This document shows positions 2,465 through 49,957 of a stretch of 64,000 nucleotides of DNA, piece by piece (positions within the stretch are counted from its first letter, which is position 1; the number at the start of each line of letters is the position of its first letter). The translations under genes and the position numbers were made by a program. Source of the DNA: an uncultured Acidobacteriota bacterium (GTDB lineage: Bacteria; Acidobacteriota; UBA6911); assembly GCA_963747985.1 (NCBI GenBank), contig CAVVHG010000001.1, positions 329,963 through 393,962 on the forward strand, in the 5' to 3' direction. The notes beneath the pieces were generated by a model. It saw nothing but the letters and a program-made list of their open reading frames with translations. It did not search any database and had not been told where the DNA came from.

Positions 2465-3795
2465 CACACAGAACGCAGAAAGTCGCCTACCCGTATTTTG
2501 TGGTCGCCCTTCTCCTGTTTGTCCTTCAGGTAGTACTTGGACTGTGGCTCGCGACGCAGTACTTCGTCACGGTGCCGCAGGAAATCGTCAATGTATTCCC
2601 GTTTTCGACCGCGCGCGCGATGCACACCAACCTGCTGGTTCTGTGGCTGCTCCTCGGCTTCATGGGCGCGACGTACTATCTCGTTCCCGAAGAGACGGGG
2701 TCCGAGATCGCCTGGCCGAAGGTGGCGATCGCTCAGCTCGTGCTGCTTTCACTGACGGGAGTCGCGGCGCTTGTCGGGTTCCTTTTCGGGTGGACGCAGG
2801 GCAAGCCGCTCCTCGAGATCCCGACCCCGCTCGATTTCCTTGTAGTAGCCGGGGCCCTGATGTTCCTGGCTAACGTGGGCATCACGATGATCCGCGCGAA
2901 GCGCTGGACGGCCGTGCAGGGTTCCCTGCTGGGCGGACTCGTCTTTCTCGCCGTGATGTACCTGTTCGGGATGCCCTTCTACAGAAACCTGGCTGAAGAC
3001 TGGTACTACTGGTGGTGGGTCATCCACCTCTGGGTGGAGGGCGCGTGGGAACTGATCGCCGCGGCACTGACCGCCTTTATCCTGATCAAGCTCACGGGCG
3101 TGAATCGCAAGGTCGTGGAGAAGTGGCTCTACGTTGAGCTGGGCCTCTTCCTGTTCACCGGTATTGCCGGCACAGGGCACCATTACTACTGGCTTGGTGC
3201 GCCCAAGTACTGGCTATGGGTGGGAGGAGCCTTCTCGGCGCTCGAGCCGCTGCCCATCCTTCTGATGGTCGTGGATACCTGGCGCGACGTGCGTTCACGC
3301 ACGGAGCCCATGCTGCCCCGGCTGACCTGGGTCTATCTCATCGGTATGGTGGTGCTGCACTTTGCAGGCGCCGGACTCTTCGGCTTTGCTCACACGCTGC
3401 CGCAGATCAACTACTTCACTCATGGAAGCCAGGTCACAGTCTCGCACGGACACCTTGCTTTCTTTGGAGCTTACGCTCTCCTGAACCTGACCTTCTTCTA
3501 TCTGGCCATTCCGCGACTCAAGAATTTCGAGGCTGGCCGTTACGACGAGAGGTCGGGACATTTCGGTTTCTGGACCACCAGCCTGGGAATCCTCGGGATG
3601 AGCCTGGCGTTCGGCGTGGCCGGCGTGCTGCAAGCCTACCTCGAAAGGATGCAGGGCCAGCCCTACATAGTCGCGCAGGAGCCAATCCGATTCTGGATGG
3701 CAATTGTGGCTGCGCACGGCCTGATTGTACTCGTGGGTGTCGTGGTTATTGTGAAGCATCTGCTGACACTCAAACCGGCGCCTTCGGCCGCCTGA
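2461..3795 (+). CDS. norB: Nitric-oxide reductase large subunit NorB (cNOR, heme-copper oxidase superfamily, 12 TM)
   Basis: 444 aa. Strong family signatures: MHTNLLVLWLLLGFMGATYYLVPEE, FYWWWVIHLWVEGAWELI, TGHHYYW, THGSQVTVSHGHLAFFGAY. Translationally coupled to the upstream cytochrome ORF. Confidence 0.92.
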   Translation: MTHRTQKVAYPYFVVALLLFVLQVVLGLWLATQYFVTVPQEIVNVFPFSTARAMHTNLLVLWLLLGFMGATYYLVPEETGSEIAWPKVAIAQLVLLSLTGVAALVGFLFGWTQGKPLLEIPTPLDFLVVAGALMFLANVGITMIRAKRWTAVQGSLLGGLVFLAVMYLFGMPFYRNLAEDWYYWWWVIHLWVEGAWELIAAALTAFILIKLTGVNRKVVEKWLYVELGLFLFTGIAGTGHHYYWLGAPKYWLWVGGAFSALEPLPILLMVVDTWRDVRSRTEPMLPRLTWVYLIGMVVLHFAGAGLFGFAHTLPQINYFTHGSQVTVSHGHLAFFGAYALLNLTFFYLAIPRLKNFEAGRYDERSGHFGFWTTSLGILGMSLAFGVAGVLQAYLERMQGQPYIVAQEPIRFWMAIVAAHGLIVLVGVVVIVKHLLTLKPAPSAA

Positions 3796-27396: not shown

Positions 27397-29289
27397 CTAC
27401 TTATTCTGAATGATCGGGAATGCCGTGAATTCCTGGCCTGGGGGAATCTCGTAGTAAGGCATGTATTCGTACGCCTTCGGGGACCATGCCTCGTCCTCCC
27501 GCAGCGCCCAGTATCCCCGCTCAATTGCGATCTGGTAGTGCAAAGGCTTTCCGGCGACCGGCATCAACCAGGCCGAAGGCTGGGCAGGGTCATTCAGGAT
27601 GCGGATCGTTTGCTGGAAATTGAACTTGCCCGCCAGTCCGAGCAGCAGGGGGCCATACTCGAGAGAGTATCGCGGGAAGCCGGCGATCTGATCGTAGCCC
27701 TCGTAACGCCTCATCCGGAAATCCATCGGCAGGCTGAATGAAATCTCGTCGCCGGGCAACCATCGCCGCTCGAGGTGGCAATAGCTCCCGGGGATCCCCG
27801 CCCTGAACGTCTTGCCGTTCAGCCGGATCTCCACGGAGTGCGCCGCCCAGGAGGGGATGCGCAGGCTCAGTGTAAAGGCGACAGGCTGCTCGCCTCCGAC
27901 CTTCAGAGTCACATCACCGGTTTGAGGGAATGTGGTGGCCGCAACGAGCTTCACATCGACATTCCCCTGCTTCCACGAGATTTCGGATGGGGCGTAGATG
28001 TTCACGTAGATTCCGCCGGGGGATTGGGAGTAGAGGTACTCGGGGAGTGAGCCGAAGAGACGGGTCCCCTGTCCCTCGCAGCATGTTCCCTCCGGAGGAG
28101 TGACCGGCACCTCCTTCTTGGCGTCGAGGACCGTGTGATATCCGATGCCGGAATCCCCGATTTGATTCCCGATGCCGGCGTTGTAGATCGACTTCTCGAT
28201 CTCGTTCACGAAGACCTCGCTGTCCGGGAAGAGGAGATGCAGGCGCTGGTTGAGCTTTACCCAGAACACGGCGCAGCAGAGTTCCCCCGCCCGGCTGGAT
28301 AGCCCAAGCTGGTACGATTTCGGCGGGTAGCGGCGGCGCTCGCACAAAGCCCACGACCCGCCCGGCATCTGCCACTTATCGCGCAACATTTCCCATGCAT
28401 TCAGAACCGCCTGGAGGTACTTCATGTCGCCAGTGATGCGGTACAGGTCCAGGTAAGCTTCAAACGCCGTAATCTCGTAGCAGTGCGATTCAGGCCGGTC
28501 GTAGATGGCCCTGTCGTCGTTGGCAAGCAACTGGGAGAGCCACCAGTCTTCCTGGTAGCGATCAAGGATCAGGTTCAAGTCATCCGGCCGGCCGAGCGGG
28601 GAGAGGTACATACGGGTCGATGAGATCATCCCCTGGTACGGGATCCAGTGGTCGGGAATGTAGCCCCGGCTCTTGTCTACGACCTGTCCCAGGTACTCAC
28701 AGTGGTTGAACCAGTCCAGGTGGCCGCGGATCAGCGCCAGGGCCTCGGGATTGCCGGCGGCGGCCGCGTCGATGAGGCCATGCGTAATCCAGGCGCGGAC
28801 GTAGTTGGCATTCTCGCGCAGCCCGGTGTCCTTTTCCGGGTAGCCCATGATGAACCCGTTCGGCTGCCTGCAGGCCGCTATCCCGGAGACAACAGCGTTC
28901 ATCCTGTCCCGGAGCTTCGGGTTTTCCTCCCAGCGCAGGGCGTTGCCGCTTCCCATCAGGAAGAGGCCCGCAACCGAACCTGTGACGCGCGGGCCGCCGT
29001 TGTCCCATGGGAAGGGTTTCCCCGGGGGATCCGGCTTTCCGGCGCGCTCACGGAAAACGTGGAGCAGGTCATTCTCAGAGAAGTTCTTGAGCAGGTACTT
29101 GACGTTGTTGTCGTATGCTTGCTTCAGTACTCCGCCGGTCAGTTTGACACCGCCGACAGGCGTCTGAAGCTGAAAAGGTATTGCCACTGGATTCCGTGGC
29201 GTCTCGGAGGCGCGGCTGGAACGTGCGGCCACCGTCCCGGCCGCAAGGAACAGCGTGATTGACATTGTTGCGAGACTGCGTTTTTTCAT
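27397..29289 (-). CDS. Glycoside hydrolase family 127 (DUF1680, beta-L-arabinofuranosidase HypBA1-like), secreted
   Basis: 630 aa; signal peptide; DUF1680/GH127 pattern including Cys-rich region (GTCCEGQGTRLF); paralogous to 39842..41725. Confidence 0.7.
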   Translation of the reverse strand: MKKRSLATMSITLFLAAGTVAARSSRASETPRNPVAIPFQLQTPVGGVKLTGGVLKQAYDNNVKYLLKNFSENDLLHVFRERAGKPDPPGKPFPWDNGGPRVTGSVAGLFLMGSGNALRWEENPKLRDRMNAVVSGIAACRQPNGFIMGYPEKDTGLRENANYVRAWITHGLIDAAAAGNPEALALIRGHLDWFNHCEYLGQVVDKSRGYIPDHWIPYQGMISSTRMYLSPLGRPDDLNLILDRYQEDWWLSQLLANDDRAIYDRPESHCYEITAFEAYLDLYRITGDMKYLQAVLNAWEMLRDKWQMPGGSWALCERRRYPPKSYQLGLSSRAGELCCAVFWVKLNQRLHLLFPDSEVFVNEIEKSIYNAGIGNQIGDSGIGYHTVLDAKKEVPVTPPEGTCCEGQGTRLFGSLPEYLYSQSPGGIYVNIYAPSEISWKQGNVDVKLVAATTFPQTGDVTLKVGGEQPVAFTLSLRIPSWAAHSVEIRLNGKTFRAGIPGSYCHLERRWLPGDEISFSLPMDFRMRRYEGYDQIAGFPRYSLEYGPLLLGLAGKFNFQQTIRILNDPAQPSAWLMPVAGKPLHYQIAIERGYWALREDEAWSPKAYEYMPYYEIPPGQEFTAFPIIQNK

Positions 29290-29441: not shown

Positions 29442-30566
29442 ATGAGCGATCCGACTCCTGCAACCACTGTCCCTCCCACCCCCCAACGCCTGCTGTCACT
29501 CGACGCCCTGCGCGGCTTCGACATGTTCTGGATCGTCGGGGCGGAGGATATCGTCCACGCGTTGGGCAAGATCAGCCAGCGCGGCCCGATCAAGTTCCTT
29601 TCCAGCCAGTTGGAGCATAAGGCCTGGGAAGGAGTAGCCTTCTACGACCTGATCTTCCCGCTCTTCGTTTACATCGTCGGTGTCAGCATAGTGTTCTCGC
29701 TCAGCCGCTCGTTGCGGACCGCGGGGAGGGCAGTAACGCTGCGCCGCGTTCTCAAGCGTACTGTTCTTCTGTTACTGATAGGCATCTTCTATTACGGGGG
29801 AGTAAGTGCGGGCCTTGACCAGGTGCGCCTGCTGGGCGTGCTGCAACGCATCGCGCTGTGCTACCTGTTCGCTTCCCTGATTTTCTCGGTGGCGAAGCCC
29901 AGGGCCATGGTCGCGGTGTGCATGACCCTGCTGGTCGGGTATTGGGCCCTGATGACCTTCGTCCCTGTGCCGGGCCACGGGGCCGGCAACTTCGCGGAAG
30001 GCGCGAACCTTGCCAACTACATCGACAGCCGCTACCTGCCCTTCCGAAAGTGGGATGGGGACCACGATCCGGAGGGATTGCTGAGCACGCTGCCTGCGAT
30101 TGCCACCTGCCTGATCGGGGTGTTCAGCGGATTGCTGCTCAGCAACGCGCGCCTGCCGGACAGGAAGAAGGTGCTCTATCTGCTCGTGGGCGGCGTCGCC
30201 GGAGTCATTCTCGGATTCCTCTGGGGCCTGCAATTCCCGGTGATCAAGAAGATCTGGACGTCGTCCTATGTCCTCGTCGCCGGAGGGTACAGTTGCATCT
30301 TCATGGCTGTCTTTTACCAGATCATAGATATCTGGAAGGTTCAGCGTTGGACGACGCCCTTCGTGTGGATCGGGATGAACCCGATCACGATCTACCTGGC
30401 CGTCAATATCGTCGATTTCCGCGCGCTTGCAGAACGCATCGCCGGCGGTCCGGTGAAGGCGCTCTTCGGTAACTACGGGGAACTGCTCATTACGTGTCTG
30501 GTTCTGGGCATGAGCTTCCTCCTGGTTCGCTTCCTCTACAAACGCAAGATCTTCCTGCGGCTCTAG
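29442..30566 (+). CDS. Membrane acyltransferase of the heparan-alpha-glucosaminide N-acetyltransferase-like (DUF5009/DUF1624) family
   Basis: 374 aa, about 10 TM; N-terminal family motif RLLSLDALRGFDMFWIVG. Confidence 0.6.
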   Translation: MSDPTPATTVPPTPQRLLSLDALRGFDMFWIVGAEDIVHALGKISQRGPIKFLSSQLEHKAWEGVAFYDLIFPLFVYIVGVSIVFSLSRSLRTAGRAVTLRRVLKRTVLLLLIGIFYYGGVSAGLDQVRLLGVLQRIALCYLFASLIFSVAKPRAMVAVCMTLLVGYWALMTFVPVPGHGAGNFAEGANLANYIDSRYLPFRKWDGDHDPEGLLSTLPAIATCLIGVFSGLLLSNARLPDRKKVLYLLVGGVAGVILGFLWGLQFPVIKKIWTSSYVLVAGGYSCIFMAVFYQIIDIWKVQRWTTPFVWIGMNPITIYLAVNIVDFRALAERIAGGPVKALFGNYGELLITCLVLGMSFLLVRFLYKRKIFLRL

Positions 30567-30656
30567 CGGAGCCGCACGGCAACATTCGGATCGAGCTGCC
30601 ACCGCCGGTACAGCCACGGTGTAGTCCGCGGTCTGAAAATGCAGGGTGTGCACGCC

Positions 30657-31925
30657 ATGACGACGCCGGCAACAGATCGCATGACCCGCATTCGCTGGGT
30701 GGTCGTGGGGCTGCTGTTTTTTGCGACCGTCATCAACTACGTCGACCGCGCGGTACTGGGCATCCTCAAGCCCGTCCTCGAAAAGGAGCTGGGATGGGAC
30801 CAGGTGGCTTACGGCTGGATCGTGACCGCGTTCCAGATCACCTACGCGGCGGGGTATGCGCTGGGAGGGCGGCTGTTTGACCGGATTGGTGTGCGTCTCG
30901 GCTATGTTCTTGCGGTAGCCGTGTGGAGCGTCGCCGAGGTCGCACATGCGTTTGTCCGCTCAGTGACAGGTTTCAGCCTGGCCCGCGCGGGCTTGGGGAT
31001 CGCGGAAGGCGGCAATTTTCCTGCCGCGATCAAGACCGTCACCGAGTGGTTCCCGAAACAGAAACGCGCCTTTGCCACGGGCCTGTTCAACGCCGGTAGC
31101 AACGTCGGCGCGGTGATTTGTCCACTCGTGGTCCCATGGTTGGCCTGCCGCTGGGGGTGGCAGTCGGCCTTCCTGGCCACCGGAGCTCTCGGCTTTGTCT
31201 GGGTCGTGATGTGGCTGACGGTCTACCGTGCTCCGGACAAACATCCGCGTGTTTCGCCCGCCGAGCTGGCATACATTCGCAGCGATCCGCCTGATCCGGT
31301 AGTCAGGATCTCCTGGCCCGAGTTGCTGCGCCACCGACAGACGTGGGCGTACGTGGTCGGCATGGTAGCTTCCTCCCCGATCTGGTGGTTCTACATCTAC
31401 TGGATCCCTGATTTCCTGAACAAGCAGTACCGCCTCCAGTTGACTCAATCCAGCGGACCGCTGGTTGCTATCTTTCTGGTGGCGGACGTCGGGGGCATCG
31501 CCGGCGGCTGGCTATCGTCGATGTTGATAGGACGAGGCTGGAGCGTCAACGCCAGCCGCAAGCTCGCGCTGCTGGTCTGCGCGGTGTGCGTTGTGCCTGT
31601 ATTCTTCACGCCGCTGGTGAGCCGCTTGTGGGTCTCGGTAGCCCTGGTGGCGCTCGCTGCCTCGGCTCACTGCGGGTTCGCAGCCAACCTCTTCACGCTG
31701 GTCAGCGACACCGTGCCGCGGCAGGCGGTAAGCTCGGTTGTGGGCATCGGCGGCATGGCTGGCTCCGTCGGCGGGATCTTCTTTGCGCAGGCCGTTTCGC
31801 GTATCCTCCAGGCGACGCACAATAACTACATGATCCCGTTCGCGATCGCTTCACTGATCTACCTGATGGCTCTGGCGGTGATGCACCTGCTCCTGCCGCG
31901 ATTGGAACCGATGAAGCTGCGGTGA
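30657..31925 (+). CDS. MFS transporter, anion:cation symporter (hexuronate/ExuT-like) subfamily
   Basis: 12 TM; ...VVGLLFFATVINYVDRAVLGILKPVLEKELGW... typical of ACS-family MFS; ATG 30657 (an earlier ATG at 30639 is also possible). Confidence 0.7.
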   Translation: MTTPATDRMTRIRWVVVGLLFFATVINYVDRAVLGILKPVLEKELGWDQVAYGWIVTAFQITYAAGYALGGRLFDRIGVRLGYVLAVAVWSVAEVAHAFVRSVTGFSLARAGLGIAEGGNFPAAIKTVTEWFPKQKRAFATGLFNAGSNVGAVICPLVVPWLACRWGWQSAFLATGALGFVWVVMWLTVYRAPDKHPRVSPAELAYIRSDPPDPVVRISWPELLRHRQTWAYVVGMVASSPIWWFYIYWIPDFLNKQYRLQLTQSSGPLVAIFLVADVGGIAGGWLSSMLIGRGWSVNASRKLALLVCAVCVVPVFFTPLVSRLWVSVALVALAASAHCGFAANLFTLVSDTVPRQAVSSVVGIGGMAGSVGGIFFAQAVSRILQATHNNYMIPFAIASLIYLMALAVMHLLLPRLEPMKLR

Positions 31926-31982: not shown

Positions 31983-32909
31983 CTAGATAATTTCGAGGGT
32001 GAGTCGCCTGTTCCCGAAACTGCGGCAGAGGCCTTCCAGATGTTCTCGGCTGGGAGGAATGGTGTCCGGCATTTTGTACCTGCGGCCGAGGCCTGAGTAC
32101 TTGGCCGCGCCGTAGCCGTGGTAGGGCAGCAGATGCAATTCAGAAATGCCCAGGGAGCGAGCGAATTCTCCTATCGCGGCGATCTGATGCGGCTGGTCGT
32201 TAAATCCCGGGATGACCGGCACGCGGACGATCATTTTCACCCCTAACCGCGCCGCTACACGGGCGTTGCCGATAACCAGCGCGTCGTCTTCGCCCACGAT
32301 AGACCTGTGAGATTCGGAATCGATCTGCTTGATATCGAATAGAATCAGGTCCGTCCGGGCCAAAACCAGCTCGACCGTTTCGGATCCTGCCAAGCCTGCG
32401 GTCTCAACAGACGAATGGAACCCACGCTCTCGTGCCCCTTCAAGCAGTGCCAACGCGAATTCGGGCTGCGCGAGCGGCTCGCCTCCGGAAAGGGTCATTC
32501 CGCCACCGGAGTGCTCGTAGAAGATGCGATCCCTCTCAACCTCAGCCAGCACATCTGCCGCCGTCACCCGGCGCCCCACAAGGCGAAGGGCGCCGGAAGG
32601 GCATACTCTCGTGCACTCATCGCACGGGATGCACCTGGCACGATCGATCGCCACGGCATCCGCCTCAAGGCTCAGTGCCCGTTGGGGGCAGACGGAGACA
32701 CAGCTGCCGCACCCCAGGCAGCGGGAACGTGTGTAGAACAACTGCGGCAACGCACACTGAGACTCCGGGTTACTGCACCAGGGACAGCGTGCCGGGCAAC
32801 CCTTGAGGAACACGGTGGTCCGGATCCCGGGGCCGTCGTGGATGCTGAACCGCTGCACGTCGAAAACATTCCCGGAGACCGCTGAAGGATCCATTCCCCT
32901 AGCCGCCAT
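31983..32909 (-). CDS. Glycyl-radical-enzyme activating protein (radical SAM, PFL-activase family with an extra ferredoxin-like 2x[4Fe-4S] insert)
   Basis: Radical-SAM CxxxCxxC in GCPARCPWCSNPE; two CxxCxxCxxxCP clusters (CLGCGSCVSVCP; CIPCDECTRVCP); start overlaps or abuts the stop of the upstream GRE (ATG 32909 or 32894). Confidence 0.85.
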   Translation of the reverse strand: MAARGMDPSAVSGNVFDVQRFSIHDGPGIRTTVFLKGCPARCPWCSNPESQCALPQLFYTRSRCLGCGSCVSVCPQRALSLEADAVAIDRARCIPCDECTRVCPSGALRLVGRRVTAADVLAEVERDRIFYEHSGGGMTLSGGEPLAQPEFALALLEGARERGFHSSVETAGLAGSETVELVLARTDLILFDIKQIDSESHRSIVGEDDALVIGNARVAARLGVKMIVRVPVIPGFNDQPHQIAAIGEFARSLGISELHLLPYHGYGAAKYSGLGRRYKMPDTIPPSREHLEGLCRSFGNRRLTLEII

Positions 32910-35337
32910 GCTCCGTCCGTTCAATGATCTCATCCTGAATCTCTTTGCTGAGTTCCACGAAATAGGCACTGTAACCGGCGACGCGCACTACCAGGCTTCG
33001 AAACTGCTCGGGATTCTCCTGGGCGCGGCGCAGCGTGTCCGCCGATACCACATTGAACTGAACGTGACCGATGCGGAGATCCACAAACCCGCGCAGAAAC
33101 GCTGTGAACCATCCGATCGAACCCGAGTACTTGAAAAAGGAGGGCAGGAACTTGAGATTCAACAGAACGCCGTTCGAAGCCAGTTCCTGGTCAATCCTGG
33201 ACACGGAGCGCAGCACCGCAGTCGGGCCCTTGAGATCGCGTCCCGCAACCGGCGAAAGGCCGCCGTCGGCAAGCGGCGTACAGGCAAGGCGACCATCGGG
33301 GGTCGCGCCCACATTTTGCCCCAGTGGCACATGTGCCGAGACCGTGTAGAATCCCGGCTGGAACGTTCCGCCGCGCGGCGTAGGATAGCGCCCCACCTCC
33401 TCGCAGTAGAATCTGGCCCACCGGTTGCCTATCTCATCCACATAGGAGTCATCGTTGCCGTACTTCGGCGCCCCGGTGAGCAATCGCTGGCGCAGCACTT
33501 CGTCTCCCTCGAAATTACGTGACAATGCTTCCATCAACCGGCGCGAGTCGATTTCGTTCCGCTCGAACACGAGCAGCCTGAGAGCGGCCAGTGAATCCGC
33601 CAGGTTCGCAACCTGGACACCTTGCGGACCGGAGAAGTTGTAGCGCGCACCGCCGTCCGTAACGTCCTGGCCCTTTTTGATGCAGTCCGCGACGACCGTG
33701 GAGAGGAACGGCGTCTGGCAGACTCTGGCGTGCACACGGTCCACGATATTGGCGCCCTTAACCATCAACCGGATGTAGTGACGGAGCTGCGTTGCCAGAG
33801 CTGCTTCCAGCTCGTCGAAATCCTTCAATTCTTCAAGCGGAGGTGTCTGCGGACCGATCCGCTTGCCCGTTTCGGGCACCCTGCCGCCGTGAAGCGTCAG
33901 CTCCAGTACCCGAACCAGGTTGAGCATGGCTGAGTCGCTCCATCCGAGCGCCTTGCCGGGAATCGAGAGTTCGACGCAACCGACGGCTGCGTAGTCGAGT
34001 GCGTCGGCATGAGTCACCCCCCTGCGCTGCTGCCCGGGCACGATGACCTCGTCGTTGAAAACCTGCGGCATTCCTGTGCCGAGGCTGATCACACGTGAGA
34101 CAGCCGCGAGAAAATCGTCCGGCGTGTCCTTGTGGAGCCTGGCCGAGAGGTTCGGTTGCGGGAGCCGGACATCGGCTTGCGCCTGCAGACAAAGGTATGA
34201 GAGGAGGTTCGTCGCATCCTGCCCGCCGGCGAGCTGCCCGCCGGTCATCACGTTGAACCCGATCGGGAATCCGGCGAAGTAGCGCGCGCCTTTTGCGCTG
34301 CGCAGCAATACGATTTCATTGAACTTGATCCACAGGCATTCCAGCAACTCCTGTGCCTGAGGCAAGTCGAGAATTCCCCCAGCCAGATCGCGGCGCAGGA
34401 ACGGCATTATGTATTGATCAAACCGACCCGGCGAAAAGGAGCTGGCGTTGGATTCGATCTGGAGCAGAACGAAGAGGAAGGCGACCGATTGCAGCGCCTG
34501 CCGGTACGTTTCGGGCGGATGCGTCCCGAGATGCCTGCAGTCTCGCTCAATATCCCGCAACTCTCCGGCCCGCCGTTCGGACGTCACGGTGCGCCCCAGC
34601 TGAGAAGCCAGATCCGCATACCGCAACATGAAGTCGGAGGCGGCGGCCAGGCATATCGCCGCTGCATGGTAGAAATCGGCTTTACCCTGGCTCAACTCCC
34701 CATTCTCCTGCAGGTGCCTGCACGCTTCGCTAACTCTCGACCCGAGTCCGCGAGGCCCTTCGCGCAGCCATGTCTCGACGTCGGGGAGAATGTGCCCCTG
34801 CGCGTGGTCCGTTTGATTCAGCTGGAAAGCCCTGGCATCGATCGCTTCCTTGACATCCGGCGGGATGGAAGCCGCTACCTGGTCTTCCAGGGTTTCTCCG
34901 CGCCAATACGGGAATAGGCGGTCCCGTAGCTCAAGCACATCCTGCGCCTCGACGTCGAATGGGTCCTGAGGTCGCTCCGGTAGAGTATCCAGCTCCCGAT
35001 CGACCCAGGATACCGCGGCCGACGGCGTGACGACCCCCATCCTGGGCAGCGGAGACCGGTTCCCGACAATCAGCTCATCGGGATGAATCCGGATTTCGAT
35101 GCCCCGCGCGATATCCCGGAACGCCTTGGCTCTGCGGACAATCGCGGACTCGCCTTCGGTTCGCTTGTAGCTCTCCGTTTCGATCCGCGCCGGTTGGATG
35201 AAGAGCTTGCGCCGGGTGGAGAGGATGCATTCCTTCAAGCGCAGGATCCGTGCGCCGGGGACACCCGGCTCTCCCCGATAAACGGGGAGATTCTCGATCC
35301 TCGCTCGATCCTCCGTCCCGGTCTGGCTCGGTACCAT
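32899..35337 (-). CDS. Glycyl radical enzyme, dehydratase/lyase (PFL2) clade (glycerol dehydratase / HypD / CutC / IslA-like), substrate unknown
   Basis: 812 aa; C-terminal glycyl-radical motif VVRVAGYSAYFVEL...IIERTEHGG; Cys-loop AAVGCVELSIPGK (thiyl Cys + Glu); family-wide blocks GRFDQYIMPF, LPQPNLSARLHKDTPDDFL, GGARYNFSGPQGVQVANLADSL, TPRGGTFQPGFY, ATPDGR. These blocks correspond to B12-independent glycerol dehydratase-type GREs rather than PflB. Confidence 0.85.
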   Translation of the reverse strand: MVPSQTGTEDRARIENLPVYRGEPGVPGARILRLKECILSTRRKLFIQPARIETESYKRTEGESAIVRRAKAFRDIARGIEIRIHPDELIVGNRSPLPRMGVVTPSAAVSWVDRELDTLPERPQDPFDVEAQDVLELRDRLFPYWRGETLEDQVAASIPPDVKEAIDARAFQLNQTDHAQGHILPDVETWLREGPRGLGSRVSEACRHLQENGELSQGKADFYHAAAICLAAASDFMLRYADLASQLGRTVTSERRAGELRDIERDCRHLGTHPPETYRQALQSVAFLFVLLQIESNASSFSPGRFDQYIMPFLRRDLAGGILDLPQAQELLECLWIKFNEIVLLRSAKGARYFAGFPIGFNVMTGGQLAGGQDATNLLSYLCLQAQADVRLPQPNLSARLHKDTPDDFLAAVSRVISLGTGMPQVFNDEVIVPGQQRRGVTHADALDYAAVGCVELSIPGKALGWSDSAMLNLVRVLELTLHGGRVPETGKRIGPQTPPLEELKDFDELEAALATQLRHYIRLMVKGANIVDRVHARVCQTPFLSTVVADCIKKGQDVTDGGARYNFSGPQGVQVANLADSLAALRLLVFERNEIDSRRLMEALSRNFEGDEVLRQRLLTGAPKYGNDDSYVDEIGNRWARFYCEEVGRYPTPRGGTFQPGFYTVSAHVPLGQNVGATPDGRLACTPLADGGLSPVAGRDLKGPTAVLRSVSRIDQELASNGVLLNLKFLPSFFKYSGSIGWFTAFLRGFVDLRIGHVQFNVVSADTLRRAQENPEQFRSLVVRVAGYSAYFVELSKEIQDEIIERTEHGG

Positions 35338-35342
35338 GGCGG

Positions 35343-36380
35343 CTATGCCTCCCTGGGGTGCTCCACGATCACCTTCATCGTCTCGCCCGCCCGCATTGCG
35401 GCCAGCGCGGCCGTGACATCTGCAACCGGCATGCGGTGCGTGATCAGGATCGAAGGCCGGATGACGCCTGATTCCAGCAGCCGCACGGTCTGTGGAAAGG
35501 GATTGATTCCGACAAAGGCGCCGTACAGCGTCAACTCATGGCGCGTAATCATGTACTGGCTCACAGCGGGCCTTGCGTGCATCTGCAGTCCGAACAGGAC
35601 AACGCGTCCCCCGCGGCGCGCCAATTTGACGGCCTGAGGCAGCAGGTTTCCTACCGCATCGACAACAATGTCGGCGTAGGGATCCGCAAGCCTTCCGACA
35701 ACTTCCTCCACGTCCTCCTGCTGCGCGTTTATGGCAACATCCACGCCGCACCGGGATGAGAAGTCCAGGCGAAACGGCGAGATGTCCGTCACGATGATTT
35801 TGCCCGCTCCACCGGCCCGATAGAGCAGCGCGTAGAGGAGACCCACCGGGCCGGCGCCGAGAATCACTACTGTGTCGCCGGGGTTTGCCGGAACACGCAT
35901 CGTCGATGAGAACACACAGGACAGGACCTCGGCGAAGGCTGCGTCCTCTACCGGCACTGCCGGATCGATGCGGAACAGCGCCCTCTCCGGGGCGACGCAA
36001 TACGGAGCCAGGCCGCCGTCGATGTGAATGCCGAGAGTCTGATAGCTCTCGCATTGGTTTGCGGTGCCGCGGCGGCAATAGCGGCACAGGCCGCAGTTCA
36101 AGCGCGGGGCCACCACCACGCGATCACCGGCCTTGAGTCCCGCAACCCGCGGACCCGTCCGGCGCACAGTGCCGACGAACTCGTGGCCGAGAACCGTACC
36201 TGGGGCGGCCTTGTGAGCCGGGGGAACCGCAAGAATGTTCAGATCCGTTCCGCACAGTCCGCACGCCTCCACGGCCACCAGAACGTCATCGCCGTTCCGG
36301 ATGTCCGGCACGGGACGATCCTGGAACTCCAGTCGCCCATCGCCCATAAACACGGGGACTCTCATCAACTTGTCCGGCAT
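35343..36380 (-). CDS. Zinc-dependent medium-chain alcohol dehydrogenase (threonine/sorbitol-DH-like MDR)
   Basis: 345 aa; catalytic Zn site VEACGLCGTDL...GHEFVGTV, structural Zn site CGLCRYCRRG, NAD-binding ILGAGPVGLL; ATG 36380 with GGAG RBS; 5-nt gap to the GRE start. Confidence 0.8.
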   Translation of the reverse strand: MPDKLMRVPVFMGDGRLEFQDRPVPDIRNGDDVLVAVEACGLCGTDLNILAVPPAHKAAPGTVLGHEFVGTVRRTGPRVAGLKAGDRVVVAPRLNCGLCRYCRRGTANQCESYQTLGIHIDGGLAPYCVAPERALFRIDPAVPVEDAAFAEVLSCVFSSTMRVPANPGDTVVILGAGPVGLLYALLYRAGGAGKIIVTDISPFRLDFSSRCGVDVAINAQQEDVEEVVGRLADPYADIVVDAVGNLLPQAVKLARRGGRVVLFGLQMHARPAVSQYMITRHELTLYGAFVGINPFPQTVRLLESGVIRPSILITHRMPVADVTAALAAMRAGETMKVIVEHPREA

Positions 36381-36666
36381 AGTTCGCTCCGTTGCAGGTG
36401 TTTTGTCGTGATGCCGCGGAACCCTGCGGCCGCGCTTTCAATTTCTTCAAGTATTACCGGCCCTGAAACCTTAGTTTGCAGTACTCCTGCACGTCAAGCC
36501 AAGCCCGACTTCAGCAGGCGTCGGCAATCGGGTGTCTTTTCGGATTTGACGGTAGTAAGCTTGCCGGTGCTGAAGGCTGGTTGCGGCGCTTGAAGGAGGG
36601 ACTTCAGGGCCCCGACGGGAGAGCCGATTTCCGGTTTGTATGCGCAGCGGTTTTCGGTGTTGAGGC

Positions 36667-37476
36667 ATGGTCACGATCTTCTCGATCTTCGTTGTGGGGC
36701 TTGCTGTCGGAATGCTGGGCAGCATGCTGGGGATCGGAGGTGGAGTGCTTCTGATACCGCTCCTCACCGGACTCTTCGGAATCGATATCAAGACGGCAAT
36801 CGGGGCAAGCATCATCAGCGTCATTGCCACTTCCGCCGCCGCGGGTGCTGTGTATGTCGGCCGCGGACAGACACACAGCCGGCTGGCAATGGTCCTGGAG
36901 ATTGCCACGACACTCGGTGCCCTGGCTGGAGGCTTCACAGCGGTGCTGGTAAGTCCCAACCTTTTGGCCGGGCTTTTCGCCGTTGTGCTGCTCTATGTCG
37001 CGTTCAGTATGCGCAAAATCCGGAAAGAAGAGCCGGAGGCGGCGCCCACCGGCCTGCTCGACACGAGCTATCACGATCCGATGACGGGTAAATGGGTCAG
37101 CTACGGTGTCAGGCACCTGCCCCTGGGAATGGGAGCCAGTTTTTTTGCAGGGAATGTCTCGGGTCTGCTCGGCATCGGCGGCGGAATCATCAAGGTGCCT
37201 ATCATGAGCCTTGTCATGGGAATCCCATTGAGGGCCTCGATTGCGACGAGCAACTTCATGATAGGGATAACCGCAGCGACCAGCGCGATTATCTACTACC
37301 AGCACGGATACATCAATCCGAGCATCGCCATCCCTACTGCTCTGGGCGTACTGTTCGGCGCCCGGCAGGGAACGAAACTCGGCGGACGCGTGCGAAGCAA
37401 CCGGCTCAAGCAGATCTTCCAGTTCGTTCTGCTTGTCTTTGCCGTGCAGATGTTCGTCAAGTCGGTGAGGGGGTGA
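36667..37476 (+). CDS. TSUP (TauE/SafE, DUF81) family sulfite/anion exporter-type permease
   Basis: 269 aa, 7-8 TM; duplicated G-rich motifs (MLGSMLGIGGGVLLIPLL and GLLGIGGGIIKVP) typical of DUF81/TauE. Confidence 0.75.
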   Translation: MVTIFSIFVVGLAVGMLGSMLGIGGGVLLIPLLTGLFGIDIKTAIGASIISVIATSAAAGAVYVGRGQTHSRLAMVLEIATTLGALAGGFTAVLVSPNLLAGLFAVVLLYVAFSMRKIRKEEPEAAPTGLLDTSYHDPMTGKWVSYGVRHLPLGMGASFFAGNVSGLLGIGGGIIKVPIMSLVMGIPLRASIATSNFMIGITAATSAIIYYQHGYINPSIAIPTALGVLFGARQGTKLGGRVRSNRLKQIFQFVLLVFAVQMFVKSVRG

Positions 37477-37479
37477 GAC

Positions 37480-38115
37480 GTGAAGGATGGTAGCTCCGGT
37501 GATCCGCATGCCGCCGCCCCCGGGACTGTAGACGGGGTGACAACTGAGGCGGATGTGACGGAACCGGTTGCGGAAGAAGGCACCGGCCCGCAACTGCTCG
37601 AGGAGGAGGCGGCGGTCGTAATGACCGAGGCATCGGCTGCCAGCCGACCGATCGTAACGGAGGCAAGCCGCTCTTCCGTCGCGGCGGCTGACGAGGCAGC
37701 CGGGGTCCACGTCGCGCCGAATCTGCTGGATCTTGTCCTGGCCCCGCCACCCACGCCCGAAGAGAAGCTCGAGCTTGAGCACACCCGTGATCTGAATGAC
37801 GTGATTCACAGAGTGCTCGTGATCGGCCTCTTCGCCAGTACCGTGGCGATGCTGGCGGGTGTGGTGCTGGCCGTGGTCCGTCATCGTGCGCTGGCCACAG
37901 CCGCGCCTGATATCAGGGGTGTGTGGGAACGCATCGAGGCCCTGCGGCCGTCCGGCTTTCTTGCTCTCGGCATCCTCATGCTCATCGCCACTCCGATTCT
38001 CCGGGTACTGGGATCCTTCGTAGTCTTCTTGTATGAACGGGACTGGCGCTACGCGGGCATAACTCTGATTGTGTTGCTGGTTCTGGTTTCGAGTCTCCTG
38101 CTCGGCAGGGGCTAG
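37480..38115 (+). CDS. DUF1634-type membrane protein (usual partner of TauE/DUF81) with an acidic, low-complexity N-terminal region
   Basis: 211 aa; C-terminal three TM helices (...VLVIGLFASTVAMLAGVVLAVV...LALGILMLIATPILRVLGSFVVFLYERDWRYAGITLIVLLVL); starts 4 nt after the TauE stop. Confidence 0.55.
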   Translation: MKDGSSGDPHAAAPGTVDGVTTEADVTEPVAEEGTGPQLLEEEAAVVMTEASAASRPIVTEASRSSVAAADEAAGVHVAPNLLDLVLAPPPTPEEKLELEHTRDLNDVIHRVLVIGLFASTVAMLAGVVLAVVRHRALATAAPDIRGVWERIEALRPSGFLALGILMLIATPILRVLGSFVVFLYERDWRYAGITLIVLLVLVSSLLLGRG

Positions 38116-38129
38116 GCTCCGGGAGGAAC

Positions 38130-39191
38130 GTGATGGACAGCAAGACGTGGCTGCAACGCGAGGTGGCGGCCTTGTATGAGATCACCCGTGCCATGAATGC
38201 CAGCAAGAGCCGGAAGGAGGTGCTCGCTGTGATGCTGGAGCGAATCGTAACGGAACTGGGCTACAAGGCGGCAACTCTCAGGCTCCTGGATGAGGAGAAA
38301 GGGACGCTCAACCTTCAGTCTGCGTATGGGCTGAGCGAGGAATACCTTGCCAAAGGGGCTGTCAGTGTGAGCAAGAGCGGGATAGATCAGACTGTGCTGA
38401 CCGGCGAGCCTGTCGCGCTGGCCGACGTGAGGAATGACAGCGCCTTCCAATACGCAGAGGCGGCGAAGCGCGAAGGCCTCTGCAGCGTGCTCGCGGTACC
38501 CATGACCCTGCATGACCGCGCGATCGGGGTGCTGCGGGTTTACACGGACCGCCCGCACGAGTTCACACCGGAGGAGGAGGATTTCATCGCAGCCATTGCC
38601 AACCTGGGGGCACAGGCCGTCTGCCGTACTCACTTCTTCCATGCCTTTCGGCTCATTGCCCGCAACCTCAATTCGACTCTCGATCTGAAGAGCGTCCTGC
38701 GGACACTTCTGCTCGAGACGGTCAGGGAACTCAACGTGAAGGCCGGATCCGTCCGTCTGTTGGACATCAACCGGGAGACCCTCCATCTCGCCACCGCCTT
38801 CGGGCTCAGCGAGACATATTTGCAGAAGGGCGAAGTCCGGGTCGGGCAAAGTCCTATCGATCAGCAGGTACTCCGCGATGGCCGGCCGGTTGCCATAACC
38901 GACCTGATGAACGAGGCTGCTTTCCAGTACCCCGAGGAAGCGCGACGCGAAGGGATACGATCCGTTCTTGCTCTCCCGCTGCGACTGAAAGAGACCGTCG
39001 TCGGGGTGATGCGGCTTTACTCGGCGCAGGTGCGCAAGCTCAGCGAGGAAGAGATCGGCTTCGCAGTCGCGATCGCCGACCTCGGGGCAGTGGCGGTAGA
39101 GAACGCAAGGTTGCACCAGGCACTCAAACGCAGGCTCGAGGAACTCAAGCAGGACGCCGACGGCTGGTATCGTTTCCTCGCGCTGGGCTAG
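38130..39191 (+). CDS. Tandem GAF-GAF domain protein without output domain (sensor/regulatory)
   Basis: 353 aa; two ~160-aa GAF-like units with parallel motifs (LRLLDEEKGTLNLQSAYGLSEEYL... and VRLLDINRETLHLATAFGLSETYL...). Confidence 0.7.
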   Translation: MMDSKTWLQREVAALYEITRAMNASKSRKEVLAVMLERIVTELGYKAATLRLLDEEKGTLNLQSAYGLSEEYLAKGAVSVSKSGIDQTVLTGEPVALADVRNDSAFQYAEAAKREGLCSVLAVPMTLHDRAIGVLRVYTDRPHEFTPEEEDFIAAIANLGAQAVCRTHFFHAFRLIARNLNSTLDLKSVLRTLLLETVRELNVKAGSVRLLDINRETLHLATAFGLSETYLQKGEVRVGQSPIDQQVLRDGRPVAITDLMNEAAFQYPEEARREGIRSVLALPLRLKETVVGVMRLYSAQVRKLSEEEIGFAVAIADLGAVAVENARLHQALKRRLEELKQDADGWYRFLALG

Positions 39192-39311: not shown

Positions 39312-39782
39312 ATGTCATTTCTGGATCGTGTGACGAAAGCAGTAGGCGACGCGGTGGATCGAGGGAAGAAAGAAGTAGACCAGTTTGTGCATATTCAGAA
39401 AATCAACAGTCAGATCTCCGACATCGAAGGGACAATCGGCGAGTGCAAGGCCAAAATCCAGGAGCACACGCAGAAGATTGGCCAGATGGCCGTTGAGATG
39501 CTGCGCGCAGGCAAAATAACGTCGCCGGAAATGCAGGGCCTGCTGGACCAGATAATCCAGATCGAGCAGGGGATCGCGAAGGCCGAAGGCGAAATTGCCG
39601 GGAAGAAGGCCGAGATCGAGAAGATCAAGGCCGAGAGCGAAGCGGAGAAGGGCCCCGAGGCCTCCGGTGCTGAGTCTCAGCCGGTGACTCCGCCGCCGAA
39701 ACCGCGCTTCTGTCCGCAGTGCGGAGCGGCGGTCGGGGCGAGCGGCGCGTTCTGCAGCGAATGCGGGGCGAAACTGGCATAG
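39312..39782 (+). CDS. Coiled-coil protein with C-terminal zinc-ribbon (CPQCG...CSECG)
   Basis: 156 aa; long heptad-like EK-rich helix, then CxxC-N12-CxxC; ATG 39312 after aagggaggtgtcag RBS; locally lower GC. Confidence 0.6.
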   Translation: MSFLDRVTKAVGDAVDRGKKEVDQFVHIQKINSQISDIEGTIGECKAKIQEHTQKIGQMAVEMLRAGKITSPEMQGLLDQIIQIEQGIAKAEGEIAGKKAEIEKIKAESEAEKGPEASGAESQPVTPPPKPRFCPQCGAAVGASGAFCSECGAKLA

Positions 39783-39841: not shown

Positions 39842-41725
39842 CTACCTGGTCATTTTCCAGTACACGGTGTAGCGGCGGCCGAAGAGCCTGTAAAAGGGCA
39901 CAAGAGTGACGTCGTTTGGTCTGCCCGCCCCTGCTGTACGGAAGGTCAGGGGTTTACCCTGGACCGGCTTGATCCAGGAATCCAGATGCGAGCGATCCCC
40001 TGTGAGTTGAGGCGCCGATACAGGGTCCCCTGACGGCCCCATCGGCCCGTAGACGGTGGCAGCGGAAAGTCCCTCGGAGCCCAGTTCTCCGGCAAGAACA
40101 AGCGGCCCGTACATGATGGCCACGGTGTCGGGATCATCGGGCAATCGGTCCAGACGCAGCTTCATGGGCAGGTCAACCGTCAGTGTGTCTCCGTCGTTCC
40201 AGGTTCGCGTCACGGACAAATAGCTTGAAGGGCTCGAGAAAGCGTCCAGCTTCTTGCCGTTCACCGTTGCCTGTGCGCCGGGCCCGATCCAGGCCGGGAT
40301 GCGGACTCGCAGCGTGAGGTCTGCGGGCTTCGTCGACCTGACGACCAGTGTGGTCTTTGCCTCTTCAGGGAATCGGGTCTCCTGCCGGATGCGAATTCCC
40401 CTCTCGCCCCACTCCAGTTCCGAAGCGATGAACAGGTTCACGAAGAGCCCGCCGTCGTCATGGAAATAGATACTGTCACCGTACTTCGCGTGATTCTCCA
40501 TGCCCGTGCCGGTGCAGCACCAGAACGAATCTTCCGGCGTCATGAAGGTCTTGTAGAAGCCGGATGCCATGGGTACGTAATACATCATCATGCCGTTGCC
40601 CGGATCCTGGGTTGCCAGGATGCCGTTGAAAAGAGCCCGCTCATAGTAATCGGCATATGCAGGATCAGGCTGCCACGTGAAGAGATGACGCGTGAGCTTG
40701 AGCATGTTGTAGGTGCAGCAGGTTTCGTGGCTCTCTTTGCCGAGCTCCGAAGCCAGTTGATAGGGCTCCGTGCGCCAATGCTCGTCGTTGCTCGTGCCGC
40801 CGGTGGTGTAGCAGCGTGCCCCGGTAACCTCCTTCCAGAAGTAGGTCGCCACGTCGTAGAAGTACGGCTCACCCGTCAACTCGTAGCCGCGGGCCGCTCC
40901 AATGACTTTCGGAATCTGGGTATTGACGTGCAGTCCCTTCAGCCTGTCCTCGTGGTGAGCCAGGGGATCGAGCACCGCCTTGTGGTCGAAGCGGCGGGCC
41001 AGAGCGAGCAGATCCGCCTCACCGGTGATGGCGTACAGGTTGCGGAGCGCATCATTCATCCCGCCGAACTCCACATCGAGCATCTTCTGCATCTGACCCT
41101 CATCGAGTCGCGCCGTCCGCTGCCTGGCCCAGTGAGCCATGCCCACAGCGACCTTGAGCGCCTGGTCGCTGTCGCAGAAGAGGTACATGTCTATCAGGCC
41201 GGCATAGATCTTGTGCAGCGTGTACCAGGGAGCCCAGACCTTTGCCCCCGTCTCCACCCGGTCGAAAAACTCTTCGGGAAAGGCGCTGAGATACCCGCCG
41301 CGTCCCAGCGCGGCCTGACATTTGGCCAGTTCTGCGACGACCCTGTTTGCCTGAGCTTTGAGGGCCTGGTCGCCCGTGCTCGCGTGCATCAGCGCACAAG
41401 CCGACAGGTAATGGCCCATGGAGTGCCCGCGCAATTCCACGTCGGGCTTCTCCCACCCTCCATATGGCTGCGCCGGGGAAGGGAGCCCCGCGGTCACCCG
41501 GAACATGTGGAGGAGGCGTCCCGTGTCGATGCTGTGGAGGTACTTCCGATCCCGCTCCATCGCTTCCCTGAACGGCCCGTCGAGCAGCCGGACCTGTCTC
41601 AAAGCGAAGGGCCGGGCACGGATGGTGATCGCAGGCTGGACCTTTTCCGCAGGCTGCATTGAAGCAGCGGGAAGAATCACGAGTCCAAACACCAGGATTG
41701 CCTTTATGTCACAATGTCCAGTCAT
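39842..41725 (-). CDS. Glycoside hydrolase family 127 (DUF1680, beta-L-arabinofuranosidase-like), secreted; paralog of 27397..29289
   Basis: 627 aa; HSMGHYLSA, CCTYNMLKL, WCCTGTGMENHAKY GH127 hallmark blocks; signal peptide. Confidence 0.75.
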   Translation of the reverse strand: MTGHCDIKAILVFGLVILPAASMQPAEKVQPAITIRARPFALRQVRLLDGPFREAMERDRKYLHSIDTGRLLHMFRVTAGLPSPAQPYGGWEKPDVELRGHSMGHYLSACALMHASTGDQALKAQANRVVAELAKCQAALGRGGYLSAFPEEFFDRVETGAKVWAPWYTLHKIYAGLIDMYLFCDSDQALKVAVGMAHWARQRTARLDEGQMQKMLDVEFGGMNDALRNLYAITGEADLLALARRFDHKAVLDPLAHHEDRLKGLHVNTQIPKVIGAARGYELTGEPYFYDVATYFWKEVTGARCYTTGGTSNDEHWRTEPYQLASELGKESHETCCTYNMLKLTRHLFTWQPDPAYADYYERALFNGILATQDPGNGMMMYYVPMASGFYKTFMTPEDSFWCCTGTGMENHAKYGDSIYFHDDGGLFVNLFIASELEWGERGIRIRQETRFPEEAKTTLVVRSTKPADLTLRVRIPAWIGPGAQATVNGKKLDAFSSPSSYLSVTRTWNDGDTLTVDLPMKLRLDRLPDDPDTVAIMYGPLVLAGELGSEGLSAATVYGPMGPSGDPVSAPQLTGDRSHLDSWIKPVQGKPLTFRTAGAGRPNDVTLVPFYRLFGRRYTVYWKMTR

Positions 41726-48631: not shown

Positions 48632-49957
48632 ATGAGTAGTGACCGCGGTGTCAATCGCAGGGATTTCGTGAAGGCTGCCGTCGGCACCGGAATCGCGATG
48701 AGCGCAATCTCTGGCGCGCGCCCGGCGCGTGCTCGCACTCCGGGGGCGAACGACCGGATCAACCTGGGAGTTATCGGTGTCGGGGGGCGCGGCTATTATC
48801 TGGCAGGTGTCTTCTCCGGTCTGGCCGAAAAATCAAACGTACAAGTAGGAGTTGTATGTGACGTCTACCGGAAACGCACGAGCGCGGCGGCAGAGCGATA
48901 CAAGTGCAAGGGGATTGCCGACTATCGCGAGATCATAGCTGACAAGAGCATCGACGCCGTGGTCATTGCCACGCCGGACCATTGGCACGCGACGATGGCC
49001 ATCGAGGCGATGAACGCCGGAAAGGACGTCTACCTGGAAAAGCCGATGACGCACACGGTCAAGGAGGCCAGGCAGGTCTACGAGTGCTCCGTGAGAACCA
49101 AGAGAGTCCTCCAGATTGGCTCGCAGACGACCTCCGCCGACCAATGGTGGAAGGCGCGCAAGGCCATACAGGACGGCATGATCGGCAAGATGATCATGAG
49201 TCAGGGGTCATACCATCGCAACTGGAACGGGAGGAGGCAGCCGCCCGGCGAGTGGAACTACACCATCGACGCGGACGCCGGTCCGTTGGGTAAAGGCGAC
49301 AACTTCATCGACTGGAAAATGTGGCTCGGCAGCGCCCCCGCGCGCCCCTGGAATGCGGACCGCTTCTTCCGATTCCGGAAGTACTGGGACTACTCGGGCG
49401 GAATCGCCACGGATCTCTTCTACCATGTCATGGCGCCCCTCAACCTCGTGTGGGGCGGCGGTGAGTTTCCGCACCGTGTAGGAGGAACCGGCGGGATTTA
49501 CGTGTTCAAGGACGAGCGGGAGGTGCCTGACACCTTCATGCTCGTCGCCGACTACCCGAGCGGACACAGCGTCGTGCTCAGTTCCTCAATGGCCAACAGC
49601 CGTCATATTCCTGGCCTGATCCGCGGCTACGAAGGAACCATCGTGATGGTCGATCACGGGCAGTTCGAAGAGGATACCGACCACATCACTGTCACGTCCG
49701 AAAGACACAACCGCGAGGACTTCATAAAGAAATACGGCGCTGCCGAAGTGCAGATCAAGGTCGAACCGCGCCAGTCCCACTGGGAAAACTTCCTCCAGTG
49801 CATGCGAACGCGCGAAGAGCCGGTTCTCGGAGGCCTGCCGGCCTACAAAGCCATGGTGCCGATTGCCATGTCGGTTGAGTCGTACCGCTCCGGGCAAATG
49901 CTCTACTTCGATGAGCAAAAGCAGAAGGTCGTTGCCAAGCCTCTGAAAAAAGCCTGA
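48632..49957 (+). CDS. TAT-exported Gfo/Idh/MocA-family oxidoreductase (GH109-like NAD-dependent glycosidase candidate)
   Basis: Twin-arginine signal [19 protein letters not shown]; Rossmann [14 protein letters not shown]; EKP motif (VYLEKPMTH). Confidence 0.6.

Follow-up and report, generated by a model that had tools for sequence, protein, structure and literature searches.

PflD and YbiW of Escherichia coli are glycyl radical enzymes (GREs) that open sugar rings. PflD opens the ring C–O bond of 1,5-anhydromannitol-6-phosphate (AM6P) and YbiW that of 1,5-anhydroglucitol-6-phosphate (AG6P), and the product, 1-deoxyfructose-6-phosphate, is cleaved by FSA aldolases (PMC13450708). PflD was characterised in 2024 as a GRE "isomerase" of anhydroglycolysis (Ma et al., JACS 2024, as summarised in PMC13450708), and its cluster in E. 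coli consists of gldA-fsaB-ptsA next to frwCB-pflDC (PMC13450708). Here we analyse a GRE locus from an uncultured Acidobacteriota bacterium, found in a 64,000-nt stretch of contig CAVVHG010000001.1 (the window). Three minus-strand genes encode a zinc-dependent alcohol dehydrogenase (Zn-ADH), the GRE and its radical S-adenosylmethionine (radical-SAM) activase. With moderate confidence, we read this operon as a PflD-type radical ring-opening C–O lyase system for a phosphorylated anhydro-sugar, equipped with a dedicated Zn-dependent C2 oxidoreductase.

Sequence, Fold and Phylogeny of the Glycyl Radical Enzyme

The GRE has a PFL-like barrel (PF02901, 677 bits) and a glycyl radical domain (PF01228, 96 bits) with the RVxG motif (RVAGYS, G788), and a radical-SAM activase is encoded next to it, all as expected for the GRE superfamily. 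Its Cys loop (VGCVEL) carries the Cys-x-Glu (CXE) motif as C454-V-E456, and it scores 850.8 bits against TIGR01774 (PFL2-3), above the cutoff of 678.2. This assigns it to the eliminase/isomerase group, that is, the B12-independent dehydratase/C-X lyases and not pyruvate formate-lyase, in agreement with a previous interpretation of the locus made from the DNA alone (the sequence-only reading).

A sequence search against the PDB ranked E. coli PflD first (8YJO, 745 bits, 48% identity), followed by PflD of Streptococcus dysgalactiae (8ID0, solved with 1,5-anhydromannitol-6-phosphate; 669 bits, 45% identity). Glycerol dehydratase (GDH; 1R8W) reached 631 bits and 9RCO, a GRM3 1,2-propanediol dehydratase (PDH; PMC12756279), 622 bits, with 42–43% identity to the diol dehydratases. 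YbiW (8ID7) scored 491 bits at 38% identity, and the sulfonate C-S lyases IslA (7KQ3, 418 bits), IseG (5YMR) and HpsG (6LON) lay at 409–418 bits and 28–30% identity. The same trend was seen with the NCBIfam models, where the PflD equivalog NF007437 (PRK09983) was the top equivalog model with 847.1 bits. The models for HpfG (571.6 bits) and HpsG (550.2 bits) both have cutoffs of 1000, which neither score reached, and HypD (537 bits) and CutC (510 bits) were lower still. We also built an AlphaFold2 (AF2) model of the GRE (pTM 0.86), which was used for the fold search alone, a search that separates PflD from diol dehydratases poorly. Foldseek placed 8YJO first, 1R8W second and the sulfonate lyases at ranks 40–44.

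A neighbor-joining tree with 200 bootstraps was calculated for the window GRE, 85 related GREs, E. coli PflD and YbiW (the latter as outgroup), 8ID0, 1R8W and 9RCO. All 85 related loci group with the window GRE in a single clade (200/200), which is sister to PflD and 8ID0 (191/200), while GDH and PDH fall outside. In the literature searched, this PflD-sister clade is uncharacterised.

Residues of the Substrate Pocket

The window GRE and PflD have the motifs GCVELSIPG, ESNASS, ARYFAGFP, GGARYNFSG, YTVSAHVPLG and LADGGLSP in common, as well as R94 and R565, and the Cys loop GCVELSIPG is identical in the E. coli enzyme. YbiW (8ID7, 8YJN) catalyses the same class of reaction with the same CXE motif and product, and likewise has its own activase (YbiY) and an FSA aldolase adjacent, but its corresponding motifs (GCIETAVGG and SSISANVPFG) are unlike those of the window GRE.

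The positions that line the small-diol pocket of GDH mostly have the PflD state: H281 is replaced by S299, Y339 by G360, Y336 by F357, N645 by H669, P641 by T665, Y157 by Q175 and Y159 by D177, whereas H164, S282, D447 and Y640 are retained. Exchange of bulky aromatics for small or polar residues is consistent with a larger polar substrate. These differences bear on whether the GRE could be a B12-independent glycerol/1,2-propanediol-type diol dehydratase whose aldehyde product is reduced by the ADH, as in 1,3-propanediol fermentation. The diol dehydratases (1R8W; 5I2A, 9RCO) do share the eliminase-type fold and the CXE motif, their bit scores are not far below that of PflD, 1R8W was second in Foldseek, and a GRE dehydratase with an ADH is a classical pairing. 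Even so, we consider this very unlikely: the substitutions at H281, Y339, Y157 and Y159 would open the pocket, the Cys loop reads VELSIPG and not VEPQKPG, the β-strand motifs differ, and the tree leaves GDH and PDH out. Moreover, the locus shows no microcompartment or Fe-ADH genes, and its context among relatives is one of sugar kinases and transporters.

Sulfonate C-S lyases bind their substrate through an Arg/Gln/Arg anchor (R189, Q193 and R678 in IslA) located at Cys-279, Cys-275 and Cys+210 in all three enzymes (PMC13450708). The window GRE has no Arg within residues 175–185 (QTDHAQGHILP) or 658–670 (FQPGFYTVSAHVP), the stretches to which these positions map approximately by Cys offset and not by alignment. 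The pocket comparison that the sequence-only reading had called for thus returned PflD-like motifs, and neither a glycerol/propanediol dehydratase pocket nor, by offset, a sulfonate anchor.

The pocket is not fully that of PflD, though. About 10 probable pocket positions differ, among them H178 (K in PflD), I359/F361/N362 (T/Y/T) and W466/S467 (L/H), and for this reason the substrate may be a sugar phosphate different from AM6P. The sequence-only reading already held that sequence does not reveal the exact substrate, and we agree.

Activase

The activase scores 344.9 bits against TIGR02494 (cutoff 174), and its radical-SAM motif CPARCPWC provides the CX3CX2C cysteines C33, C37 and C40. Two CX2CX2CX3CP ferredoxin motifs are present, which confirms the insert proposed earlier; a ferredoxin-type activase next to the GRE is also found in the PflD/PflC system. 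The open reading frame (ORF) stays open back to a GTG at 32969, yet the ATG at 32894 is most likely the start, since the activases of relatives begin 3–4 nt after the GRE stop codon.

In seven loci, mostly from Acidobacteriaceae (L023, L026, L033, L040, L041, L045 and L049 in our numbering), the activase is fused to a ROK sugar kinase, and in all seven the fusion ORF immediately precedes the PflD-like GRE gene. In L023 (7986–9923) the 645-aa ORF comprises the kinase at residues 10–316 and the radical-SAM activase at 373–574. To our knowledge, no such kinase-activase fusion has been described before.

Genomic Neighbourhood of Related Enzymes

A scan of species-representative genomes gave 483 GRE relatives. 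The best 80 were kept and, together with two metagenome loci, make up 82 loci whose neighbourhoods were assessed by neighbour clustering and Pfam. The relatives span Chloroflexota, Acidobacteriota and other phyla. Acidobacteriota (Terriglobia, Terriglobales, Acidobacteriaceae, Terracidiphilus) contribute nine of the 80 species-representative loci, so the earlier remark that GREs are atypical for this phylum is overstated for this GRE family.

A ROK sugar kinase is encoded at 50 of the 82 loci (fused to the activase at 7), and an FsaA/B-like aldolase (39–42% identity) adjoins the GRE at three (L023, L040, L041). Many of the loci also have CUT1-type sugar ABC transporters, and regulators of the SorC, LacI or AraC type occur frequently. 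Other neighbours are GFO/IDH/MocA and GMC oxidoreductases, an RPE-like epimerase, and Dabb and HbpS-like proteins. Kinase and aldolase near the relatives parallel the phosphotransferase system (PTS) and FsaB of E. coli, with the kinase replacing the PTS.

One locus from an uncultured Anaerolineales (L058) encodes a GRE of the PflD-like clade together with an activase twice within 10 kb, arranged as activase, GRE and GFO/IDH/MocA gene on one strand and GRE, activase and ROK kinase on the other. These might represent paralogous specificities in one organism.

Zinc-Dependent Alcohol Dehydrogenase

The ADH has the zinc ligands C40/H66/E67 and C96/C99/C102/C110, and by sequence it is a zinc medium-chain dehydrogenase/reductase (MDR) of the polyol/threonine dehydrogenase subfamily. 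Its top curated matches, all under their cutoffs, are IolM (200.7 bits), RspB-like (PRK10083, 185.9 bits) and Tdh (PRK05396, 185.8 bits). The cofactor is probably NAD, as VTD follows the GAGPVG motif.

The Zn-ADH is a conserved partner of the GRE clade. In the six closest sequenced relatives (L001, L003, L004 and L085–L087; GRE identity 78–88%), a gap of 5 nt separates the ADH orthologue (84–89% identity) from the GRE gene downstream of it, and the ADH-GRE(-activase) order and spacing are kept. More distant orthologues (54–59%) are found inside GRE operons of Vecturithrix and Moduliflexus (ROK-GRE-ADH-Dabb-activase) and in Chloroflexota operons of the type SorC-ADH-RPE-GFO...ROK-GRE-activase. 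Orthologues of 66–71% identity occur in operons with RPE-like, GFO/IDH/MocA, ROK, ADH and transporter genes next to a LysR regulator gene; in L154 this operon is divergent from the GRE and activase genes. The RPE-like/GFO/ROK/ADH operons are bordered by a set of genes resembling 2-oxoacid/acetoin dehydrogenase (L153:1–4257, L154:1–672, L155:11215–14591), consisting of a fused E1 of 688–819 aa and an E2, as well as an E3 in L153.

Several roles could be envisaged for the ADH: it could reduce 1,5-anhydrofructose to the anhydro-hexitol, interconvert C2 epimers, or reduce the methyl-ketone product or hydroxyacetone, the role of GldA in E. coli. The classical pairing of GREs with ADHs and the E. 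coli precedent would favour a downstream step. The position of the gene by the kinase and transporter genes in operons, and the lack of an ADH at the loci with FSA aldolases, point slightly towards an upstream one.

The TauE-DUF1634-GAF Module

A spacer of exactly 286 nt (36381–36666) separates the ADH gene from three plus-strand genes for a TauE/TSUP permease, a DUF1634 protein and a GAF-GAF protein without an output domain. The GRE had been proposed to be a sulfite-releasing sulfonate lyase of the isethionate or 2,3-dihydroxypropane-1-sulfonate type, with sulfite exported by TauE/DUF1634 and the aldehyde reduced by the ADH. The divergent genes only 286 nt away are what speaks for it, together with the fact that the adjacency is kept in the closest relatives (TauE identity of at least 89%; L089, L091–L093 and probably L087). 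The enzyme itself, although it shares the eliminase group and CXE motif with IslA, IseG, HpsG and HpfG, stands far from them in sequence, phylogeny, fold and pocket motifs: they are among its most distant eliminase matches, with HpsG and HpfG models far from their cutoffs and no Arg at the offset-mapped anchor stretches.

The gene neighbourhoods point the same way, as genes for sulfite export or reduction show no conserved association with the GRE. Homologues of TauE, DUF1634 and GAF-GAF were found within about 10 kb in none of the 82 related GRE loci, and they are also absent at the close-relative loci L085 and L086 and at the Terriglobales locus L154. The expected co-occurrence of the GRE with TauE therefore does not hold even among relatives with 78–86% GRE identity. 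Upstream of the ADH and GRE genes these have different genes, a TonB-dependent receptor in L085 and a TonB-receptor-type outer-membrane barrel in L086, while L001 and L003 have an AraC-type regulator and L004 has other genes. L087 was considered as a further relative lacking TauE and was dismissed, since the first 156 nt of its contig correspond to the part of the window spacer next to TauE and the contig stops there.

Conversely, the module is found without the GRE. A metagenome scan with TauE gave 65 loci, of which 64 had a TauE match on re-search, many on short contigs. Among these 64, DUF1634 is detected in 36, GAF-GAF in 16 and a zinc-ribbon gene in 4. The whole series from TauE to the zinc-ribbon protein is found again as a unit in the metagenome loci L088, L090, L091 and L149. 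Orthologues of the ADH or GRE upstream of TauE are confined to loci whose TauE has an identity of at least 89% (L089, L091, L092, L093). At 71–78% TauE identity, seven loci with more than 1.5 kb of upstream sequence (L098, L101, L105, L109–L112) have no ADH or GRE orthologue there, while relatives in this identity range keep DUF1634 and most of them GAF.

Spacer length within the lineage lies between 286 nt and about 1.5 kb, and conservation is limited to the two gene-proximal ends. The middle measures from 0 to about 1.2 kb: L092, L093 and L089 show expansions of 340–1200 nt there, and an ORF for a small secreted protein is found in it in L089 and L087. The ADH-proximal part is conserved with the ADH in L087, L092 and L093 and contains TTCGGGCTTGGCTTGACG and, after it, the palindrome TGCAG-N5-CTGCA, which might be an operator. 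It is probably the promoter or leader of the minus-strand operon. A promoter scan of 31.8–39.4 kb found no sigma-70-like site in the spacer, and Rfam and terminator scans of the same region gave nothing informative and no RNA family. A shared divergent regulatory region was rejected, as each end is conserved with its own gene and the middle is variable, with an extra ORF in L089.

We judge the TauE-DUF1634-GAF genes to be an independent module which is not part of the GRE system and adjoins the operon only in one narrow lineage. TauE and GRE each occur without the other and the spacer is variable, so there is no evidence of shared regulation or function, and the proposed link between them falls. 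The TSUP pair without a GRE is just the finding that the sequence-only reading had named as one that would disprove it. A sulfonate lyase at this locus is largely refuted and keeps only the faintest plausibility. This removes a false lead: the locus gives no evidence of a new sulfonate lyase.

Proposed Reaction and Alternatives

On top of the observed gene content, family placement, conserved motifs and neighbourhood statistics, the reaction would proceed as follows. The activase, with S-adenosylmethionine and its [4Fe-4S] clusters, would place a radical on G788, from which it would move to C454. The thiyl radical would take a hydrogen from the carbinol carbon beside the ring oxygen of a phosphorylated anhydro-sugar, our best guess being a 1,5-anhydrohexitol-6-phosphate such as 1,5-anhydromannitol-6-phosphate. 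E456 would deprotonate that hydroxyl and the ring C–O bond would open, giving a 1-deoxy-2-ketose-6-phosphate in an isomerisation with no net elimination. The NAD-type Zn-ADH would serve the same pathway as a dedicated C2 alcohol/ketone oxidoreductase, which either makes the anhydro-hexitol (for example from 1,5-anhydrofructose) or reduces the methyl-ketone product or hydroxyacetone. Phosphorylation, by ROK kinases in relatives, and C–C cleavage, by FSA in some of them, would be encoded outside the window. What we infer in this scheme is the substrate, the need for its phosphate group, and the step taken by the ADH.

Some observations weigh against the scheme. The score of the GRE misses the cutoff of the PflD equivalog model NF007437 (847.1 against 1109 bits), and its identity to PflD is just 48% compared with 42% to glycerol dehydratase. 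The residues unlike PflD listed above belong here as well, and the AF2 model has pLDDT values below 50 exactly in the active-site loops (176–181, 347–357, 453–468, 671–680 and 692–702). Which residues of the GRE would bind phosphate is likewise inference only. No homologue of a ROK kinase, PTS or FSA aldolase is present in the 64-kb window. As to the ADH step, FSA-bearing loci are without an ADH, and the ADH operon of L153 has no GRE within 9 kb.

Part of these observations would fit the same radical C–O chemistry on a different and maybe unphosphorylated substrate, such as another anhydro-sugar, a deoxy-sugar or a cyclic polyol. The Zn-ADH would then directly reduce the ketone formed by the GRE, and the two enzymes would make up a self-contained fermentative module. 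An operon with 4–5 nt gaps and without kinase, transporter or aldolase agrees with this, as do the roughly 10 pocket positions unlike PflD, the separate clade (200/200) below the equivalog cutoff, and the ability of polyol-type Zn-ADHs to reduce C2 ketones. On the other hand, the pocket segments of the ADH-linked clade are near-identical to their counterparts in the sister clades that are associated with ROK and FSA genes. The basic residues R43, R94, H178, H669 and R565 are kept, which is typical of PflD-like enzymes and not of diol dehydratases, and ADH orthologues of 66–71% identity lie directly beside a ROK kinase. We therefore regard this module as unlikely, though it is the main alternative to our reading and clearly more plausible than a diol dehydratase.

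The phosphorylated anhydro-sugar reading also leaves room for a more far-reaching version, which is possible if somewhat unlikely. The substrate of the PflD-sister clade would then be a sugar phosphate that is neither AM6P nor AG6P. Together with the Zn-ADH, GFO/IDH/MocA protein, RPE-like epimerase, ROK kinase (sometimes fused to the activase) and, in Acidobacteriota, the E1/E2/E3 proteins, the clade could make up a separate radical pathway of sugar catabolism in bacteria of soil and sediment. Within such a pathway, the 1-deoxy-ketose-6-phosphate might be converted to acetyl-CoA and erythrose-4-phosphate, with thiamine pyrophosphate-dependent acyloin cleavage replacing aldol cleavage.

PflD/PflC of E. 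coli and S. dysgalactiae (8YJO, 8ID0) thus remains the best match to the window GRE in sequence, profile and fold, as a sister clade differing in identity, equivalog score and pocket. The gene set differs too: instead of PTS, aldolase and GldA, the window has a translationally coupled Zn-MDR dehydrogenase. Finally, the host is a soil Terriglobia member with a haem-copper oxidase, compared with a gut facultative anaerobe.

Locus Layout and Neighbouring Genes

All six genes, three on each strand, were verified at the positions given earlier by ORF and domain checks (Table 1), with the 5' end of the activase gene, probably at 32894 and not 32969, as the sole correction. The ADH and GRE genes are separated by 5 nt (GGCGG) and the GRE and activase genes by 4 nt (TCCC), so the tight minus-strand operon and its gene calls stand, as do the coordinates of the spacer and the plus-strand genes.

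Table 1. Positions of the features of the GRE locus and the adjoining module in the window.
Feature	Position	Strand	Basis or remark
Zn-ADH, 345 aa	35343–36380	-	Pfam ADH_N and ADH_zinc_N; first gene of operon
GRE, 812 aa	32899–35337	-	PFL-like and Gly_radical domains; above TIGR01774 cutoff
GRE Cys loop core C454-V-E456	33970–33978	-	Translation check; thiyl-radical Cys and general-base Glu of CXE motif
Glycyl radical site G788 in RVAGYS	32974–32976	-	Translation and motif
Activase (radical-SAM), 303 aa from ATG at 32894 (most likely start)	31983–32894	-	TIGR02494; Pfam Radical_SAM and Fer4 families
Activase two-cluster ferredoxin insert, C59–P99	32598–32720	-	Motif check
ADH-proximal upstream region, about 135 nt	36381–36516	-	Conserved with ADH in relatives
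TauE-proximal spacer part	36506–36666		Conserved with TauE in relatives
TauE/TSUP permease	36667–37476	+	Pfam
DUF1634 protein	37480–38115	+	Pfam
GAF-GAF protein	38130–39191	+	Pfam
Zinc-ribbon protein, 156 aa, coiled-coil	39312–39782		After GAF-GAF

The window as a whole is a polysaccharide-utilisation neighbourhood with two GH127-like genes, AXE1-like and melibiase-like genes, a GFO/IDH/MocA gene, MFS and SSF transporters and TonB-dependent receptors. The GH127-like genes (β-L-arabinofuranosidase family) lie on either side of the region, at 27397–29289 (-) and 39842–41725 (-), and an HGSNAT-like acyltransferase is found near one of them at 29442–30566. An ACS-family MFS transporter gene (30639–31925) is convergent with the activase. 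It was considered as a member of the system and rejected, because its sole match among the GRE loci is weak (29% over 122 aa) and about 9 kb from the GRE in L001 and L003, with none at the other loci.

The GFO/IDH/MocA protein (441 aa, 48632–49957, +) is 90% identical to the product of L085:27–1352. In L085 this gene lies 4.5 kb upstream of the ADH and GRE genes, whereas in the window the distance is 12 kb and takes in the TauE module as well as GH127 and AXE1-like genes. This contrast points to a local rearrangement or insertion.

The window that encodes the oxygen-sensitive GRE also has a gene for a COX1-family haem-copper oxidase subunit I, at 2461–3795 (+). The host is probably facultative or microaerobic and not a strict anaerobe.

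Implications

The PflD-type radical chemistry is already known, and what is new here is the clade, its partner genes and the environmental hosts. The first description of anhydroglycolysis dates from 2024 and concerned gut bacteria, and this locus with its more than 80 relatives suggests that a sister family is widespread in Acidobacteriota and Chloroflexota of soil, peat and sediment. The partners of this family differ: a ROK kinase replaces the PTS, a dedicated Zn-ADH is present, and in some loci kinase and activase are fused. If our reading is right, the three-gene ADH-GRE-activase unit would offer a defined set for testing the substrate range, and the pathway would extend to environmental carbon turnover, for example to the 1,5-anhydrofructose-derived sugars formed through glucan lyases.

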